A stretch of 64,000 bases of DNA, taken from the NCBI GenBank assembly GCA_020697715.1, contig JAEHCO010000003.1, forward strand, positions 184,020 through 248,019, given 5' to 3'. Made by a program: the position numbers. Positions 12,001 through 54,000 of the stretch are shown piece by piece. The stretch comes from Methanobacteriota archaeon. Its GTDB lineage: Archaea > Thermoplasmatota > Thermoplasmata > SG8-5 > JAGLSY01. Each line of letters starts with the position of its first letter. Within the stretch, counting starts at the first letter, position 1.

Positions 12001-15000
12001 ATCACCTTTTAGAACAACAATGGCATTATTGGTGAACCCATCTGGGAAGGCAGTTGTATGATTGGCATGAATGAAAGTAATATTATCACCCTCATCAACT
12101 AGTAAGAACTCATCAGATGAGACATTCCAATCCCTCACAACGCCCTTGATACTGATCTCCTTGTCAAGGTATTTGGCTGTGTCATCAGCCACCTGGTGCA
12201 CCTCGTATATCTCTTCAGGGACCATGCCCCAGAGTAGGATGCCGACAATGACAACGACGACCACGATGAAAACACCGAGCTTGATCTGCTTCTCGGTGAC
12301 CTTCTTCTTTGGCTTTGTTTCAGCCTTTATTTCAGGATCAATTACCTTCTCCTGAATCTCGGTTTCGTCCATCCATAACCTCCTTCAGCATTTTCATTTC
12401 CCTTCCCAATTTTTTCTGATCAAACATCAGCTTGACCAGATAAGCGAAGGTCAGTCCCCAAATTATAGAGTATCCAATGTACATGTAAGTAATATCATCC
12501 ATCTTTAACCTCTCCATTCTGAATCTATGATTTTGTCGAGCTTTTCTGATGCTCTGTCCATACTATAATTCGAGCGCATCAGAAATCACCTATTTCTTGC
12601 TTTATTTCTTCTATTTCTTCTCTAGTTGTCTCCAGGTCGGTCTTGATCATCAAGATACCCAGATAAAGGAATGTGAAGGCAAAGACCGCTGTTACCAGTG
12701 TCTGCACCATGGGAGTCTGAAGACTTCCACTTTCGGAAGCTATAACCGTGGGATGGAACTGTGTCCATATCCTATTGGCTGCAAAGCTCAGGGGGATGCA
12801 TAGGAAGCCGATTATCCCGAAAACCGCGCTCATCCGGGCTCTCGCCTTGCCCGGATCGCTATTCGACCTTAGAGCGAGGTAAGCGATGAATACCAGCCAC
12901 AGGACCATGGTCATGAACAATTTCATATCATCCCATATCCAGAAGACACCCCAAACACCCTTGGCCCACAATGCGCCAGTGATGATGGCCGCGGTACAGA
13001 AGACCACGCCGATTTCGGCTGATGAGTAAGCCAATATGTCATATTTCATATTGGATGTTTTCAGATATAGAAGACTGCCGAGCAGAGTGATACCAAATGC
13101 CAGGTATGAGACCCAGGCCGATGCGACATGGAAATAGAAAATGCGCTGAACATCGCCCATTGTGTCATGGGTGGGAGCCCAAAGGAAGGCCATGTACAAT
13201 CCTGTGAATGTAAGAGCCGCGGAGGCCAGTAACATAATTATTGTTAATATATTCTTCTTTGTCATGTCATTCCTCAATTATGTAATCTATCATCAGGTAA
13301 CCGCTGGCTACAAAGATTATATCGAATGCCAATATAAGCTTTATCCCATTGGATAGATCCGCCAAGACCGCTCCATCGAATATCTGGAAAGTGGCTTCCA
13401 CCGATGTCATGATGACCGTGAAGAGCAGGATGGGTATGAGCAGGACCGGGAGCATGACCTGGCTCTGTGACAAGTTTGCCGAAATAGCCGAGATCAGATT
13501 TCCCAGAGCCGTGAAGCCGATGGTTCCCAGCACGATGATGCCCAGTAACATTCCCATATCTGGCATGGGTTGGGCGAAGAAGGCGAAGAATATCATTGTT
13601 GAGAATAAGTTCAATCCGAGTATTATGATGAAGGTTGCCAGGAACTTACCGAAATAGATGGAAGAAGCGGATATCGGAGCCAGCATCAATCCTTCTTTCG
13701 TTCCCTGCTCTACCTCTCTCTGGTAGATGGGAGCTAGTGCGAACATCCCGCTGAAGAAGAAAGTTATCCATAGGATCGGAGACGCCAGTTCGGTCTCCGA
13801 GAAATCAATGAATTCGAATATGAACCTGAAGGAAGCCAGTATCATCAATGAAAGAATGAGCATGGAATTGATCATCTGCTTGTTCCTGAACTCGATCCTC
13901 AGCTCTTTCAGGAATATCGCACGGGTGGCACTAATGACCCTCACCCCCTAATATCTCCTTGTATTTGGATAGGAATTCTCCTGTCTCCGCATTGTCATCG
14001 TCTATGATCTTTCCTTTGGACAGGATGCCTCTTCGCGTGGCTATCTCCATTCCTTTTTCTAGGTCATGGGTGATCATGAAGAATGTCACCCCTTCTTGAT
14101 TCATTTTCTCGATGACCTTGTTCAGCATGGCCTGTGCATTGAGATCGAGACCGGAATACGGCTCATCCAGGAAAACAAGTTCTGGTGAGTGGAGAAGGGT
14201 TCTGGCCAGAGCCAGTCTCTGCTTCATCCCCCTGGAGAAGGAGCCCACCTTGTCGAATGACCTGTGATAGAGTTCCACCATCTTCAGCATCTCTTCAATC
14301 CTTTTCTCTTTGTTTGGAATTGAATAAAGGTCTGCGAAGAAATCCAGGTTCTCATGAGCCGTGAGATCCCTGTAAAGATATGGCTCATGGGACATGAATC
14401 CTATTTTTCTGCGAATGTCTTTGAGATCGTCCTCCGCGCTCATACCAAAGTGAGAGATCTCTCCTTTATCCGAGTGTATGAGGGTGGCCAGTATCTTGAC
14501 CAGGGTGGTCTTACCGACACCATTGGAACCAAAGAGAACATAAACATCTCCTTTGTGAAGTTCCAGATCCAGACCATTGAGCACGTTCTTCTTTCCGAAG
14601 CTTCTACGTATGCCCTTGGCCTTGAGAATTCCATCTGCCATTGATACGATGGAATTCATTGTTATTATTAAAACCTTCTAATATAGCAAAGGAAAGCATC
14701 ATCTTCTGGGTTCTTCCCCGAACATGTCGATGTCCTTGAGCTCATCAGGGTGATGGTGCTTCATCTGTTCACGTGTCATCTTTCCCGTGAGCCAGGTCAT
14801 CTGCATTGGATCATCTGGTAGGAAATGCACATTGTAAAAGTGAGATATTATAACGACCAGTGTGGCGACGAAAGCCTCGTAGAAATGCATAACTCCGGCC
14901 AGGTTCACCCAGCCAAATGGTATGAATTTCAATGCAACGAAGGGGAACCATAGTATGAAACCAGATATTCCCATGACCAGTATACCCCAGACAACACCCC

Positions 15001-51000: not shown

Positions 51001-54000
51001 CCCAATCTGGCTGCCACTACATCATTGTGGCATCCACTTGCACCATCACCGCAATTCACATCATTTCCACCAATATATGTATGAGATTCTCCGACCTTGG
51101 TCCATGTATATGTATTCTCATGTGTTGAGAAACTGGTCTCCACATTCGTGATCGCATAGCTCACATCGATAGTGAAATTATAATAATCTGGACGTTCATA
51201 AGTTACATTGACATCGAAGCCAGTATGACAAACTATGCAGGCTTCATTGGGTCCTTTATTGTAGATGCTCGCTCCTGCATTGGAGAACATATCTTGGTGT
51301 GCTTCTGTACTATAACTTATATTGGTCGCCACGGTATCATGACAACTAATACAACTAGGCAATGCCGCAACGTGCTGGTCATCATACTCATTAGAAACAT
51401 CCTGATGACAATCTGGACAGGTCATTCCCTCATGTGGCTCAGTACCAGGGGTACCTAACATGTCTGTGAATTCCAGGCCGACATCATCATGGCAATCGAG
51501 ACAAGCCTTTCCAGTGTTCCAATCATGTTGTGAGGAGAACAATGATACCGTGATAGCTCCAATAGAAATAGCGGCTATAGCCAGTATCATTATCAAAAGC
51601 AAGGCCTTTTTTGATATCACTATGGATGGGGTAGGAGTGAACGCCTTCGCTGTAGTGGCACTAAAAGATGAATCCGCACCCGGGTCGCCCCCGACCTCCG
51701 GTTTCATATCTGGCTGACTATCAATGTCAGGTCCATTTTCTATTTCCATTGCCATGTTGATCCGCAAGCTTTGGTTGGTTAAACTATATATTTATTATAG
51801 TTATGTTAAACAGTGTATGTAACCTATTTAATATAATAGTTACGGGCTTATTTTCAATAAGCCAGATTATGCGCCATAATACACAACCGAAAGGCATATA
51901 AAAGTCAGTGATATGTCCTCTTATTGGAGAAAGTCTCATGCAAATTGAAGAGTACACATTTCCGGATGACCTGTATTTCCACAAGGAACACTACTGGGCA
52001 AGAGTAGAAGGCGACGTTGTAGTTATTGGCGTTAGCGATTTCGCTCAGAAGCTGGCAGGAACAATTAAAAGAGTGGTCACACTGGAAGAAGACGATGAGA
52101 TCGTCCGCGACAAGCCAATTGGTACATTGTCTAGCGGGAAATGGACAGGAAAATTATACGCACCTATCAGTGGTGAGATAGTTGAGGTAAATGAGGATAT
52201 CGAGGATGAGCCAAATCTCATCAATGAGGATCCTTATGGAGAAGGCTGGGTCATAAAAGTGGAACCTAGTGACCTCGATGCAGACCTCGCCACCCTCAAG
52301 AAGCCAGGCCCAGAGTTCGAGGCCTGGATGAAGAAAGAGATCGAAGAAAAGAAAGCTTTGGTAAAGTAAAATTGACCAAAGGCGATCTGTCGGGATCTTT
52401 GCGTTGTTAGTATTGTCATATAGTGTAGCTTGAAGCTTGCGTATTTGGGCGCAAGCTTTTTTTCAATTTATGGATTATTGGGTATGGTAGGTGTTTAGGG
52501 TTTTAGAAAGATTGACACCCCCGCCATTCTGACGGGGTTCTAGGGATCCATTTTTAATTGTCACTCGAATTCTCATCGAATCCAGTACCCCGCCCTTATG
52601 AATATTTAATGAATGATCCAGACGGGGCATGCCGTTGAGAAACGCTTTGCAGGCTTCGCGCAAAGCTCTACTTCTTAAAAATGGGCTTGCAGTTGACAGC
52701 CCGATTCATTCTGTCTGGTCCCAATAATCTCATCGACATCTCCAGGGTCCAGTTCCTCTTGAAGGCCTTGTCCGCCATCCTCTTTGTATCCAGAGCATTA
52801 TCCAGCTCTGGGCCGACATTCATCCTCCACTCTTCCTCGTATTTTTGGAGTGGTGTGTTGTCCTTGAAATTCTGAGCTATGACATTTCCAGCTATCCTGC
52901 CGCATATCATGGATATCGGTATACCGCCTCCATTTGTCGCCATCACTTGTCCAGCCGCATCCCCGACTATCATTACATTATCTTTGACAGTTTGCGGGAT
53001 GGGCCCTGATATTGGAACAAATCCCGCACTCAATTGCTCGATCTTTCCCAGGCCTCGGACCTTTAGGAATTTATCCAACATATTCCTCAATGACACATTC
53101 CCTGTCTTCTGAATGCCAAGGCCGACATTCGCCCCGTCGCCCTTTGGGATCACCCAGGCATAGCCGCCAGGTGCGATCGTGCCGAAGAACATCTCCACAA
53201 TAGGCTCGAAATCCCCGGATACCTGTCCGAGCATGCAGGGGCACAGGACATGCTCGACCTGCATTCCTGCGGATTCTGCAACTTTGGATTTGAAACCATC
53301 GGCTCCGACAATGACCTTCGCTTTTATGCTTCCTTTATCGGTCTCGACCATGTTTCCATCTAAGGACAGGAATTTTGTCCCTGTCCTTAGGTCGGCTCCC
53401 GCATCTGTCGCCTTGCTGGCCAGATGTTTGTCGAAGTATCTTCTATCTACTGTGAATCCTTCAAAATCAATGTCATATTTCCGGTTCTTAGGTGATACGA
53501 ACCGGATCTTCTCCGTCTTCATCTTGATAAGCCCGTCATCGATATTGAAAAGCTCTGATTGATCCTTCACCCTGGGTATGATCCTTTTCATCTCATTGGT
53601 GGATGGTATGAACTCCCCGCATTGAACTGGCTCACCAACTGCTTTTCTCTGATCGATGATAATTACATTTAAGCCAGATCTGGCTGCATAATATGCTGTT
53701 GAACTTCCTGCAGGCCCGGCTCCGATAACTGCGACATCGAATTCTTCCATTTTGGATCACTCTGTTCTTGTTTACAATTTTCACGATCATCAATGATTTC
53801 TGTCCACTGCGAAATCGGACAGTGCCAGTAGCTTGTCCCATTCTTCAGTTCTGGTATTTATCTGCTCCAATGCGTCGCTCGCCTTGTTCCCGTAAACCAT
53901 GGAGAGATCATGGGCATAATCAATAGAGCCAACATCCTTCATGATCCTGATGGCCTCCATGATATCATCATTGGAATTCTCATTATTTGTTATGACCTTC

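Follow-up and report, generated by a model that had tools for sequence, protein, structure and literature searches.

A candidate AvECN-type cytochrome filament module with a linked signal peptidase, a rare membrane protein and a giant multihaem cytochrome in a Thermoplasmata-type archaeon

Introduction

AvECN is a four-haem subunit of an archaeal cytochrome filament (PDB 8E5G, F2KMU8; the structure is named AvECN in a figure legend of PMC12954529), and its homologues appear as MmcX or ECN-Mv in later papers. Published passages on the ECN family name Methanoperedenaceae, ANME-1, ANME-2, Syntropharchaeales and Archaeoglobales as its lineages, while part of PMC13748539 calls the physiological function of both archaeal filaments solved so far unresolved. 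Cytochrome clusters of archaea capable of extracellular electron transfer may also contain a signal peptidase adjoining an unannotated integral membrane protein. The relevant passages of Chadwick et al. 2022 (PMC9012536) list this 'signal peptidase + 8x TMH' pair in ANME, Syntrophoarchaeum, Geoglobus and Ferroglobus, state that homologues were not found in other organisms, and assign the pair a general part in cytochrome maturation. The same passages describe giant cytochromes of ANME and Archaeoglobales, with thousands of residues, tens of haems, CxxxxCH variants and haem-free middle domains. In the OmcZ system of Geobacter and Methanoperedens, as outlined in a section of PMC13748539, the gene cluster of a cytochrome filament includes a serine peptidase, OzpA, that is thought essential for assembly.

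Here, we analysed a 64,000-nucleotide stretch of DNA (the window) from a non-methanogenic Thermoplasmata-type archaeon, in whose genome (G000) a search for McrA gave no match. An initial annotation had noted, in 39 kb of the window, a region suggestive of extracellular electron transfer by cytochrome filaments.

Results

All genes listed for the 39-kb region are present, and the reported counts of 22, 11, 8 and 4 CxxCH motifs were reproduced by ORF and motif counting; yet the span proved to be three blocks rather than a single unit (Table 1). The two cytochrome blocks are separated by ~11 kb unconnected with cytochromes, in which a lipoate-assembly cassette is located.

Table 1. Features of the cytochrome region, with positions counted along the window
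Feature	Position	Strand	Evidence
Block 1, Ccm and membrane cytochrome modules	11.5-25.4 kb		
CcmE haem chaperone, 147 aa	11929..12372	-	PF03100 27.9 bits (cut-off 24.6)
CcmC	12579..13277	-	PF01578 3.4e-28; TIGR01191 ccmC 3.7e-30, below its cut-off
CcmB	13267..13944	-	PF03379 5.9e-21
CcmA	13931..14659	-	ABC_tran PF00005 1.9e-30
Cytochrome b, FdnI/HydC type, 234 aa	14699..15403	-	PF01292 1.3e-10
8-haem cytochrome c, 416 aa	15404..16654	-	Cytochrome_C7 7.3e-15; 8 CxxCH
One-haem surface protein, CARDB domain, 275 aa	16672..17499	-	CARDB 2e-06; NF041762 diheme_GEGP 3.3e-14, below cut-off
FAD-linked oxidase, GlcD / D-lactate dehydrogenase type, 512 aa	17585..19123	-	PF01565 1.2e-38; PF02913 2.3e-19
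Membrane protein, 257 aa	19120..19893	-	Weakly cytochrome b-like, pairwise E 2e-05 to 14699-15403
NrfH-like membrane-anchored cytochrome c, 449 aa	19906..21255	-	TIGR03153 NrfH 6.5e-12, below cut-off
CcmF haem lyase, 707 aa	23254..25377	+	PF01578 3.4e-29; PF16327 1.4e-12
Lipoate-assembly cassette, unrelated to cytochromes	25486-33033		
Block 2, candidate nanowire module	37-51.8 kb		
One-haem protein, C-terminal anchor, 221 aa	36995..37660	+	NF041895 choice_anch_V 4.2e-10, just below cut-off
PKD-domain protein, 363 aa	37657..38748	+	K319L-like PKD 2.4e-13
ECN subunit, 210 aa, 4 CxxCH	38915..39547	+	8e5g_A E 7.3e-14; family profile
Sec11/SipW-type signal peptidase I, 295 aa	39618..40505	+	TIGR02228 66.7 bits (cut-off 51.85)
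TPR/membrane protein, 668 aa	40524..42530	+	TPR_2 7.2e-09; C-domain homologues at ECN loci
Surface protein, 487 aa, paralogue of 21432-23132(+)	42527..43990	+	Pairwise E 7e-19, whole length
Giant cytochrome, 2590 aa, 22 CxxCH	43995..51767	-	ECN head; TIGR01904 8.5e-30 over six stretches

In block 1, Pfam bore out the presence of CcmA, CcmB, CcmC and CcmF; the first three serve System I in exporting and loading haem. The initial annotation had looked for neither CcmE nor CcmH: CcmE emerged 207 bases outside the start of its region, whereas a search of G000 (93.8% complete) returned no CcmH. The CcmE gene, the sole match in G000, encodes a single N-terminal membrane helix and a C end reading CPSKY, with Cys replacing the His of the classical form, and we take this CxxxY ending to be the mark of the archaeal variant. 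CcmA, CcmB, CcmC, the Cys-type CcmE and CcmF would thus make up an archaeal-style System I that produces c-type cytochromes without CcmH. Homologues of CcmF occur in 39 of 401 genomes of the class but, at the level of the order, in 5 of 22, exclusively those bearing ECN.

The remainder of block 1 comprises two sets of membrane cytochromes. The cytochrome b and the 8-haem cytochrome c, which has hydrophobic segments indicating a membrane helix at either end, form a candidate quinol:cytochrome c module, and the 257-aa membrane protein with the 449-aa cytochrome c (11 CxxCH, 2 CxxxCH and 1 CxxxxCH) is a candidate for a second quinol-oxidising module. The FAD-linked oxidase (TIGR00387 glcD 2.1e-58, below cut-off) is a possible electron input within this cytochrome operon. 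The 275-aa one-haem protein ends in PAPGF and a hydrophobic tail, presumably a PGF-CTERM sorting signal. Hdr/Mvh-like and complex-I-like genes, for which low-potential electrons are a possible substrate, also occur in the window, and an HdrD-like protein adjoins the cytochrome block.

The 210-aa protein of block 2 had been matched to 8e5g_A, and the match was reproduced exactly (residues 6-193 on 7-209). A 60-member family profile headed by this protein covers residues 1-251 of the 262 of 8e5g_A with an E-value of 5.2e-74, the runner-up in the PDB scoring 6.6e-13. Its haem motifs lie at C41, C69, C101 and C170, with distal histidines at H31, H57, H94 and H144; the 60 sequences share all four CxxCH motifs, H31, H94 and H144 without exception, and at least 90% of them have H57. 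These sequence characters place the protein fully within the AvECN family. At its N end, a conserved hydrophobic leader precedes SLFSTQH(31)DW. A His within 20 residues ahead of the first haem motif is present in 161 of 165 family ORFs (as QH in 141), and the mean top-residue frequency reaches 0.70 in columns 21-34, compared with 0.37 in the rest of the protein outside the haem sites. AlphaFold2 modelled the subunit poorly (pLDDT 52.5). The reported rarity of the gene (5 of 151 genomes) held in the larger sample: matches to the ECN profile came from 6 of the 401 class genomes, namely G000, all three others of its genus, one more of the order and one more of the class. Upstream lie two lineage-specific surface proteins of 221 and 363 aa, with homologues beside ECN at 4 of 75 loci, only the Thermoplasmata-type L003, L004, L006 and L007.

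The signal-peptidase-like neighbour of the initial annotation scores above the TIGR02228 cut-off, which is passed in 5 of the 22 order genomes, the same ones that bear ECN; against the NCBIfam SipW model it falls below the cut-off (1.9e-09). It has three hydrophobic segments, and none of the 26 family sequences deviates at S147, H186, D202 or D208. The adjacent 668-aa protein combines an N half of TPR repeats, zinc ribbons and acidic linkers with a conserved multi-helix membrane domain in its C-terminal 250 aa, marked by an invariant WW (W585, W586). Its model (pLDDT 74.8) has six to seven helices and found no informative fold match. The membrane-protein family is rare, with 87 representatives among 1.84 billion proteins.

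These two genes travel with the ECN gene, an association that we present here as new. The peptidase stands beside ECN at 25 of 75 loci and the membrane protein at 21 (12 and 11, respectively, when only the 31 loci flanked by 5 kb or more on each side are counted), the linked loci coming from ANME-1, Methanoperedens, Syntrophoarchaeum, Archaeoglobus, Hydrothermarchaeota and Thermoplasmata records. In the class, the peptidase, the membrane protein and ECN occupy the identical 6 of 401 genomes. In the Archaeoglobus-related family sampled around G402 (61 genomes), ECN is found in 25 and the membrane protein in 27, all 25 ECN-positive genomes being among the 27; G437 and G441 have the membrane protein with no ECN match at the strict threshold. 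Such counts overstate the evidence, because related genomes are not independent. Linkage is common but not obligatory, since 50 of the 75 loci have no peptidase within reach and since G409, the genome with the gene of the solved subunit (E 1.7e-183, residues 1-262 of 262), has a single peptidase/membrane-protein pair, whose two adjacent genes lie 1.57 Mb away from that for AvECN. The 487-aa protein, made up of a signal, an external portion of ~330 aa, a single helix and a coiled C-terminal tail, has no Pfam or NCBIfam match; its paralogue adjoins CcmF, and its homologues among the 75 ECN loci are confined to L003, L005 and L006.

The giant cytochrome contains 30 haem-type motifs in all, as 2 CxxxCH and 6 CxxxxCH add to the 22 CxxCH. 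A hydrophobic stretch (residues 46-80) leads into an ECN-like head at 73-191 (H81, C89, H112, C117, H132, C139, H157, C177), followed by two further haems at 278 and 342. Residues 350-1170 are haem-free and include approximately five repeats of ~110 aa; a family search with this middle part gave no result. The portion 1176-2590 has 24 haem motifs, among which the CxxxxCH...CxxCH type is frequent, and is interrupted by a haem-free insert at ~2140-2370. The likeness of the N end to the small subunit was confirmed, with the identity, previously put at 40%, being 35% over 165 columns (E 6e-15) or 41% over query residues 6-109. Also upheld was the close counterpart in one MAG, a 2580-aa ORF of G021 (87.2% identity over 2592 columns). 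In all six ECN-bearing class genomes, a second ECN match forms the head of a longer ORF (348 to 2598 aa of open frame); in G207 the genes converge in the same order, and its version is 346 aa long with 6 haems. In the tree, the heads form a clade of 6 rows (support 99) whose sister is that of the small subunits (5 rows, support 98), which indicates that the head is a paralogue of ECN; all six genomes have preserved it next to the small subunit, a relationship new here. Among the 75 loci, 14 carry longer ORFs with an ECN-like head (16 ORFs).

Discussion

On balance, we consider it probable that the window encodes extracellular electron-transfer equipment in two blocks, the second being a four-part nanowire kit of the AvECN type; AvECN-family membership, kept haem ligands and co-occurring partners strengthen the cautious initial reading. 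In block 1, two membrane modules, each pairing a multihaem cytochrome c with a b-type or b-like subunit, would draw electrons from the membrane quinol pool or return them to it, with the GlcD/lactate-type flavoenzyme positioned between both. In block 2, the 210-aa protein would be secreted and polymerise as the major subunit. The dedicated Sec11-type peptidase would cut its conserved leader just ahead of the ...LFxxQH arm, probably after TVS, although the leader may instead stay uncut as a membrane anchor. The rare membrane protein, fused here to a cytoplasmic TPR/zinc-ribbon part, would serve as an assembly or export platform, and a paralogous minor subunit, its ECN-like head bearing its own copy of the leader motif and lengthened in this genus, by a part with 26 more haem motifs, to a total of 2590 aa, would join the filament through that head. 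The locus thereby offers a concrete candidate parts list for building and ending such haem-protein wires.

The layout of CymA and NapC, an N-terminal helix and four haems in ~200 aa, invites a different view of the 210-aa protein, whose filament formation is predicted: an anchored or soluble, non-polymerising shuttle from the membrane modules to the giant, which would be the real outer conduit. A passage of Chadwick et al. (PMC9012536) suggests a CymA-like role for small anchored cytochromes, and a weak Pfam match to Cytochrom_NNT (1.4e-4) points the same way. Its score of 22.1, however, lies under the cut-off of 24.1, whereas the filament-subunit match is far stronger and full-length. Moreover, we infer from portions of two texts that three of the distal His in the solved structure bind haems of adjacent subunits; if distal His do ligate across subunits, a monomer would leave haems unligated, and all four are kept here, so that a shuttle seems rather doubtful to us. 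Less probable still is that the peptidase and membrane protein are general maturation factors, removing leaders and handling haem for all multihaem cytochromes. This was proposed, in the passages of PMC9012536 at issue, for what is probably the same pair in ANME, beside CcmF2 and a large S-layer cytochrome, and the pair in G409 adjoins no ECN gene. Yet 33 of the 39 CcmF-positive class genomes lack both the membrane protein and ECN, G000 has a divergent second signal peptidase with S26 motifs elsewhere, and neither Pfam nor fold comparison detected any similarity of the membrane protein to haem handlers of the CcmC/CcmF type.

The ECN system might also run in reverse, with a mineral, an electrode-like surface or a syntrophic partner supplying electrons that it passes to the quinol pool. 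According to part of PMC11176372, MmcX, an AvECN-family protein from a Methanocellales MAG, restored cathodic uptake and not anodic export in a Shewanella mutant, but the host in that assay was foreign and lacked the partner genes. The window genes do not fix the direction: the Hdr/Mvh-like and complex-I-like genes could use low-potential electrons, while the GlcD/lactate-type dehydrogenase and the HdrD-like protein suit oxidation of an organic donor with external disposal. We therefore hold uptake to be a tangible, if lesser, possibility.

The proposed nanowire module shares with AvECN the whole-length family match, four CxxCH in the same order, four distal His, and the leader with its QH motif. 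Both have tandem paralogues or longer relatives nearby, as with the 272-aa, 5-CxxCH paralogue that follows the AvECN gene in G409. It differs in its ~30% identity, its shorter subunit (210 versus 262 aa), its Thermoplasmata-type genome, where filament formation is predicted, and the presence of peptidase, membrane protein and minor subunit all in one cluster. The 8x TMH protein of Chadwick et al. is probably the membrane-protein family of the window, despite the six to seven helices of our model: in both, a signal peptidase adjoins an integral membrane protein in cytochrome clusters, and the family includes ANME-1, Methanoperedens and Syntrophoarchaeum loci. In contrast to the published passages, the pair here extends to Thermoplasmata- and Hydrothermarchaeota-type records, is tied by our counts to ECN rather than to general maturation, and in the window bears the extra 400-aa TPR/zinc-ribbon part.

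The likeness to OmcZ/OzpA lies in a cytochrome filament with a peptidase in its gene cluster; OzpA, however, takes off a C-terminal part of a different, eight-haem protein, whereas the window encodes a membrane signal peptidase I, and there it is the N end that carries the conserved site. PDB searches revealed no sequence relation between OmcZ and the ECN subunit. Bacillus TasA fibres have their own signal peptidase, SipW. There, too, a fibre-subunit gene stands beside a dedicated peptidase of the ER/archaeal type, but the subunit fold is another and haem is absent, so the analogy is one of working logic only. Finally, the giant resembles those of ANME and Archaeoglobales (locus L023 holds an 1811-aa example) in size, haem number, CxxxxCH variants and haem-free middle; it differs in that searches of its haem-free parts found no S-layer or other known domain, and in that it begins with an ECN-type leader and head.

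Layout of the locus and the haem-attachment system

The 39-kb span singled out by the initial annotation consists of several blocks and is not a single unit (see table below). Its counts of 22, 11, 8 and 4 CxxCH motifs were reproduced by ORF listing and motif counting, in ORFs of 2590, 449, 416 and 210 aa, respectively, and the largest of these, the giant cytochrome, has 30 haem-type motifs once CxxxCH and CxxxxCH are added to CxxCH. CcmA, CcmB, CcmC and CcmF, as listed there, were named by Pfam and NCBIfam. CcmE and CcmH had not been looked for; the former is present as the sole match in the window's genome (93.8% complete), so that System I parts A, B, C, E and F are all represented, and the latter gave no PF03918 match in that genome. 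The C end of CcmE reads CPSKY, and a Cys-type CcmE (CxxxY, with Cys replacing the haem-binding His) combined with the absence of CcmH is what we take to be the archaeal form of System I. A 117-aa protein that follows CcmE at the end of the ccm operon has two hydrophobic segments and no family match, and might be a small Ccm accessory subunit.

The same block holds two cytochrome/membrane-protein pairs, each made up of a membrane-anchored multihaem cytochrome and a b-type or b-like membrane protein, and also encodes a GlcD-type flavoenzyme and a surface protein with one haem. Two further surface proteins, which belong to no known family, are paralogues over their full length (E 7e-19); one adjoins CcmF and the other the giant cytochrome. 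Both consist of a signal, ~330 external residues, a single helix, an acidic stretch and a coiled C end that is conserved, and only the closest Thermoplasmata-type loci showed homologues.

Features of the window (positions in nucleotides unless marked kb)
Feature	Position	Strand	Remarks
Complex-I-like subunits	60-1526 and 55176-57806		both window ends
Hdr/Mvh-like block	1880-11360
Block with Ccm genes	11.5-25.4 kb		with two cytochrome/membrane-protein pairs
117-aa protein	11516-11869
CcmE	11929-12372	-	just outside the start of the 39-kb span
Surface protein, first paralogue	21432-23132
Lipoate-assembly cassette	25.5-33 kb (25486-33033)		mid-span
HdrD/TfrB-like CCG protein	25486-26784
LipS2-like radical SAM protein	28244-29287
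LipS1	32056-33033		232.9 bits, cut-off 230
859-aa secreted protein	33107-35686		FG-GAP surface protein
OsmC, UbiE			after the lipoate cassette (Pfam)
Putative nanowire module	37.0-51.8 kb
210-aa subunit	38915-39547	+	four haem motifs
Signal peptidase	39618-40505	+	Sec11-type
668-aa membrane protein	40524-42530	+
Surface protein, second paralogue	42527-43990
Giant cytochrome	43995-51767	-	2590 aa
Second GcvH	51908-52369		right after the giant gene

The 210-aa subunit and its leader

The reported match of the 210-aa protein to the solved AvECN filament subunit (8E5G, chain 8e5g_A) was recovered by phmmer at E 7.3e-14, with residues 6-193 aligned on 7-209 and the next chain at E 0.3. A scan of the genome collection returned 150 relatives of this four-haem subunit (ECN), the best 80 of which, corresponding to 75 loci, were kept. 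A family profile built from 60 diverse four-CxxCH members, the window's protein first, matched residues 1-251 (of 262) of 8e5g_A at E 5.2e-74. Sequence relation to OmcS, OmcE, OmcZ or PcECN (8E5F) was not detected, none of these being among the two phmmer hits or the 33 profile hits at E <=1. All four CxxCH (C41, C69, C101 and C170) as well as H31, H94 and H144 are invariant in the 60 sequences, while H57 is kept in at least 90% of them, and these four distal His, which would be the axial haem ligands, match those of 8e5g_A in the alignment, H57 being slightly displaced. Judged by these alignments, the 210-aa protein is a true member of the AvECN family. Its AlphaFold2 model, computed without haems from a 21-row alignment, was poor (pLDDT 52.5, pTM 0.33). 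The subunit might instead stay anchored and work as a CymA/NapC-like shuttle; however, the CymA/NapC model PF03264 scored the protein at 22.1 bits, under its gathering score of 24.1.

The N-terminal hydrophobic leader is followed by a ...SLFxGQHxW motif (MPYTVSLFSTQHDW in the window), which is found across the family and in 8e5g_A. The end of the leader and the residues that follow form the most conserved stretch besides the haem sites (consensus PSTVSLFAGQHTWY in the family and PYTVSLFSTQHDWK in the window), with a mean top-residue frequency of 0.70 versus 0.37 in the rest, and, to our knowledge, ordinary signal peptides are not conserved to such a degree. A His lies at most 20 residues before the first haem motif in 161 of 165 family ORFs. 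Small residues are usual at positions -3 and -1 of signal-peptide cleavage sites, and cleavage after T-V-S would fit the whole family, leaving an arm that starts LF..QH. In the window's protein, the mature chain would then begin at L26.

Linkage of the subunit to a signal peptidase and a membrane protein

Directly 3' of the ECN gene lie the genes for a signal peptidase I and the 668-aa protein. The former, noted previously as signal-peptidase-like, is of the archaeal/ER type (TIGR02228, 66.7 bits against a cut-off of 51.85), and its S147, H186, D202 and D208, invariant in 26 of 26 family members, are presumably the catalytic Ser and His and the conserved Asp of family S26. The last 250 residues of the 668-aa protein form a multi-helix membrane domain. 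Its family is tiny, with 87 representatives (E <=0.001) among 1.84 billion proteins, a few of which are long forms of 587-663 aa like the one in the window. The protein has an invariant WW, and six to seven long helices were modelled (pLDDT 74.8); Foldseek found no match to this model in the PDB at E <=0.001 (best TM ~0.2), and a wide search with VIA-align returned generic helical hairpins only (Z <10).

Among the 75 ECN loci (best 80 of 150 relatives), peptidase homologues occur in 25 and membrane-domain homologues in 21, all 21 of which also carry the peptidase. Many of the 75 loci end early; the 31 in which 5 kb or more flanks the ECN array on each side include 12 with the peptidase and 11 with the membrane protein. 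Loci bearing the peptidase, with or without the membrane protein, come from records labelled ANME-1/Methanophagales, Methanoperedens, other Methanosarcinales, Syntrophoarchaeum, Archaeoglobus, Hydrothermarchaeota and Thermoplasmata. Across the class, six of 401 genomes match the ECN profile (the window's own, G021, G125, G132, G139 and G207), and precisely these six are matched by the membrane-protein profile. In 61 genomes of a family sampled around G402, whose locus L056 is labelled Archaeoglobus sp., ECN (E <=1e-40) was found in 25 and the membrane protein (E <=1e-10) in 27, one copy each, with all 25 among the 27 and neither protein in 34; because kin are not independent, such ECN/partner counts are descriptive and not tests.

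The two partners need not adjoin the subunit gene. In the genome encoding the 8E5G subunit (G409), the protein of which matches 8e5g_A over 262 of 262 residues (E 1.7e-183), no peptidase or membrane protein lies within 20 kb of the ECN gene, the neighbours of which are a 272-aa ECN-like paralogue with five CxxCH and a five-haem cytochrome. One ECN-type peptidase and one membrane protein are encoded there side by side, 1.57 Mb from the ECN gene. In G434, from the Archaeoglobus-related sample, the pair abuts a six-gene ECN array.

Chadwick et al. 2022 (PMC9012536) report that ANME, Syntrophoarchaeum, Argoarchaeum, Geoglobus and Ferroglobus carry, in their cytochrome clusters, a signal peptidase together with an integral membrane protein that lacks annotation ('8x TMH'); they found no homologues elsewhere and read the two as cytochrome maturation factors. 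The window's pair is probably the same. As in the ANME clusters, its peptidase adjoins an unannotated multi-pass membrane protein in a cytochrome cluster, although the published name counts eight helices and our model six to seven. The pair might accordingly serve all cytochromes and not ECN alone. A CcmF homologue is found in 39 of the 401 class genomes, so that, with the ECN and membrane-protein profiles confined to six, 33 cytochrome-c-maturing genomes are without both proteins; these counts disfavour the pair as general cytochrome factors. A housekeeping role for the next-door peptidase was rejected, since TIGR02228 scores above its cut-off in five of the 22 order genomes, namely the five ECN-bearing ones, and since the window's genome encodes, on another contig, a second, divergent peptidase with S26 motifs (16.7 bits against TIGR02228), which is taken as the housekeeping enzyme.

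Of the 22 order genomes, the same five hold CcmF, ECN, the peptidase and the membrane protein, none of which was found in the rest, a distribution that fits gain of the whole capacity by the lineage, or loss elsewhere. In the peptidase tree, the Thermoplasmata-type clade stands beside a Hydrothermarchaeota-type clade (support 95); as the tree is unrooted, we name no donor of the module.

Further families recur around ECN genes. A ParA/MinD-type P-loop ATPase is encoded near ECN clusters in 11 of the 75 loci (best 80 of 150 relatives; e.g. L021:16218-16988) and also 2.3 kb from the peptidase/membrane-protein pair of G409 (L129:12345-13121), and two unnamed families of ~400-470 aa and ~146 aa occur in 14 and 10 of the 75 loci (best 80 of 150 relatives), respectively. 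None of the three was found in the window.

ECN-headed paralogues

Residues 73-191 of the giant cytochrome match the small subunit at 35% identity (E 6e-15), with two loops shorter in the giant's head, and the alignment takes in the leader end (ITVSLFSSQHDW), the four CxxCH and the His at the QH, DDQH and EAH positions. Past the head, the giant has two haems, ~820 haem-free residues (including about five repeats of ~110 aa) and a part with 24 haem motifs, which contains many CxxxxCH...CxxCH arrangements (TIGR01904 8.5e-30, six stretches) and one haem-free insert. The haem-free parts matched no family (best Pfam hit 0.064 at E <=1; protein atlas scores at most 0.84), and the whole protein had no match among PDB sequences at E <=0.01.

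All six ECN-bearing class genomes yield a second ECN-profile hit, which falls on the head of a longer ORF; these frames measure 2598, 2589, 1594 (cut), 954, 740 (cut) and 348 aa. The 87% identical giant previously recorded in a public MAG was found in G021 (87.2% over 2592 columns). The long form of G132 is without the repeat region, and that of G207, at 346 aa with six haems, equals giant residues 74-346; its gene, like that of the giant, lies behind the ECN, peptidase and membrane-protein genes and is convergent with them.

A tree built from 81 ECN heads places the small subunits of Thermoplasmata type (5 rows, support 98) as sister to the long-form heads (6 rows, support 99), with support 83 for the node joining them. 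This pattern fits a single duplication that preceded the divergence of these genomes, both resulting copies having been retained. Long forms from other lineages group apart, and the long/short label changes three times on the tree, versus a shuffled mean of 18.8. Elsewhere, 14 of the 75 loci (best 80 of 150 relatives) hold ORFs with an ECN-like head, 16 in all, which measure 338-525 aa and contain 5-11 CxxCH; in Methanoperedens loci, these ECN-headed long ORFs lie between the peptidase and the membrane protein.

ECN genes are also often multiple. At least two ECN-like ORFs are present in 50 of the 75 loci (best 80 of 150 relatives), and amplification reaches 17 profile matches (E <=1e-10) in G401 and a six-gene tandem array in G434, both Archaeoglobus-related. 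In this sample, some ECN matches contain one in-frame stop, mostly TGA and in some cases TAA or TAG (among them G402:C16:213-887, G401:C47:38014-38667 and G444:C1:284738-285445), which may reflect an overrun of the match, a broken copy or recoding.

Relation to known systems

The subunit family, the Ccm system and giant cytochromes are known kinds, and the peptidase/membrane-protein pair probably is as well. The paper of Chadwick et al. (PMC9012536) also describes a widespread, highly transcribed group of small cytochromes and predates the filament structures. AvECN homologues appear as ECN-Mv in Methanoperedens (PMC13748539) and as MmcX in a Methanocellales MAG; in the sections at hand, the latter source omits Thermoplasmata from the lineages listed for the family and states that MmcX in Shewanella restored electron uptake and not export (PMC11176372). 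PMC13748539 calls the physiological roles of the two solved archaeal filaments unresolved.

Our literature search returned no report of ECN in Thermoplasmata and no text tying the peptidase or the membrane protein to ECN, though the original AvECN paper (Cell 2023), with its analysis of gene neighbourhoods, homologues and ligands, lay outside this search and may cover some of the points made here. Within the search, the sole match for the peptidase/membrane-protein link was the pair of Chadwick et al., and the sole mention of Thermoplasmata cytochromes, made in passing, was in PMC10415592. We found no printed account of AvECN-family proteins in a lineage of Thermoplasmata type, of a strict genomic coupling between ECN and its two partners (membrane protein and peptidase), or of an ECN-headed paralogue, which here reaches 2590 aa.

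A possible route of wire assembly

The locus combines membrane cytochrome modules and a complete system for haem attachment with an AvECN-family subunit that keeps all its ligands, an ECN-linked, co-occurring peptidase and membrane protein, and a conserved ECN-headed paralogue. The cautious reading of the initial annotation, that the locus suggests extracellular electron transfer by cytochrome filaments, stands, and the finding is real. We have moderate confidence in an overall model of the locus as a nanowire kit, in which the ECN subunit would be exported and would lose its leader to the dedicated peptidase, the arm so freed would join the remaining distal His in ligating haems across subunit borders and so lead to polymerisation, and the membrane protein would act as a platform for ECN assembly.

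According to a preprint, known filaments have 0, 1 or 3 His ligating haems of the adjacent subunit, and a later figure legend by the same author gives OmcZ, OmcS and F2KMU8 (AvECN) as examples of polymerisation strategies. From these two sources, AvECN would seem to have three His that ligate haems of the neighbouring subunit. If so, an isolated ECN head would have unligated haems, which is a reason to think that the head of the giant docks onto ECN subunits, and the bulky C-terminal body would limit this docking to one end of the filament.

Going further, archaeal ECN wires might be heteropolymers made by a three-part machine of peptidase, membrane-protein platform and ECN-headed end-subunit paralogue, a proposal we regard as unlikely though not negligible. 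Here, the peptidase would free an N-terminal arm whose His (H31) ligates the haem of the next subunit, so that cleavage would license polymerisation; the ECN-specific membrane protein would serve as the assembly platform; and the ECN-headed paralogue would be the first or last subunit, capping the wire. In this genus, the cap would bear a 26-haem, 2400-residue terminal 'electrode' touching minerals or partner cells. A 2025 preprint on OmcE (10.1101/2025.10.22.684050) asks what the nanowire tip and stopper are, and its authors found no candidate in OmcE operons. The heteropolymer reading, if true, would answer this question, and the head-bearing paralogues are candidates for this part in the archaeal system.

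Cytochrome nanowires are known as structures, and little is known of how archaea build, start and end them. The locus offers a compact, syntenic list of putative parts (major subunit, peptidase, membrane partner and head-bearing minor subunit), and, since these co-occur across distant archaeal lineages, they are genetically testable in tractable relatives. The natural size series of the presumed minor subunit, from 346 to 2590 aa, is useful for asking what role the extension plays. As far as sequence can tell, the family and the capacity for extracellular electron transfer would extend to a non-methanogenic Thermoplasmata-type lineage.

Neighbouring genes

The organism was rejected as a methanogen or methanotroph, as its genome gave no match to McrA at 93.8% completeness. 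Besides the members listed in the table, the lipoate-assembly cassette comprises two LplA-type ligases (one fused to DUF116), a GcvH-like protein and, on the opposite strand, a GGR-type flavoprotein. The cassette resembles the lipoate-binding-protein sets that accompany Hdr-like complexes. The 859-aa secreted protein between this cassette and the putative nanowire module has seven FG-GAP repeats (E 1e-119) and an Ig-like domain. The Hdr/Mvh-like block encodes HdrC-like and HdrB-like proteins, MvhD (FlpD), three further iron-sulfur or flavin-binding proteins and a 1491-aa HdrA2-like fusion with a glutamate-synthase-type NAD(P) module. The Complex-I-like subunits at the window ends are a NuoN/Mrp-type antiporter subunit on the + strand and homologues of NuoA, B, C and D on the - strand.
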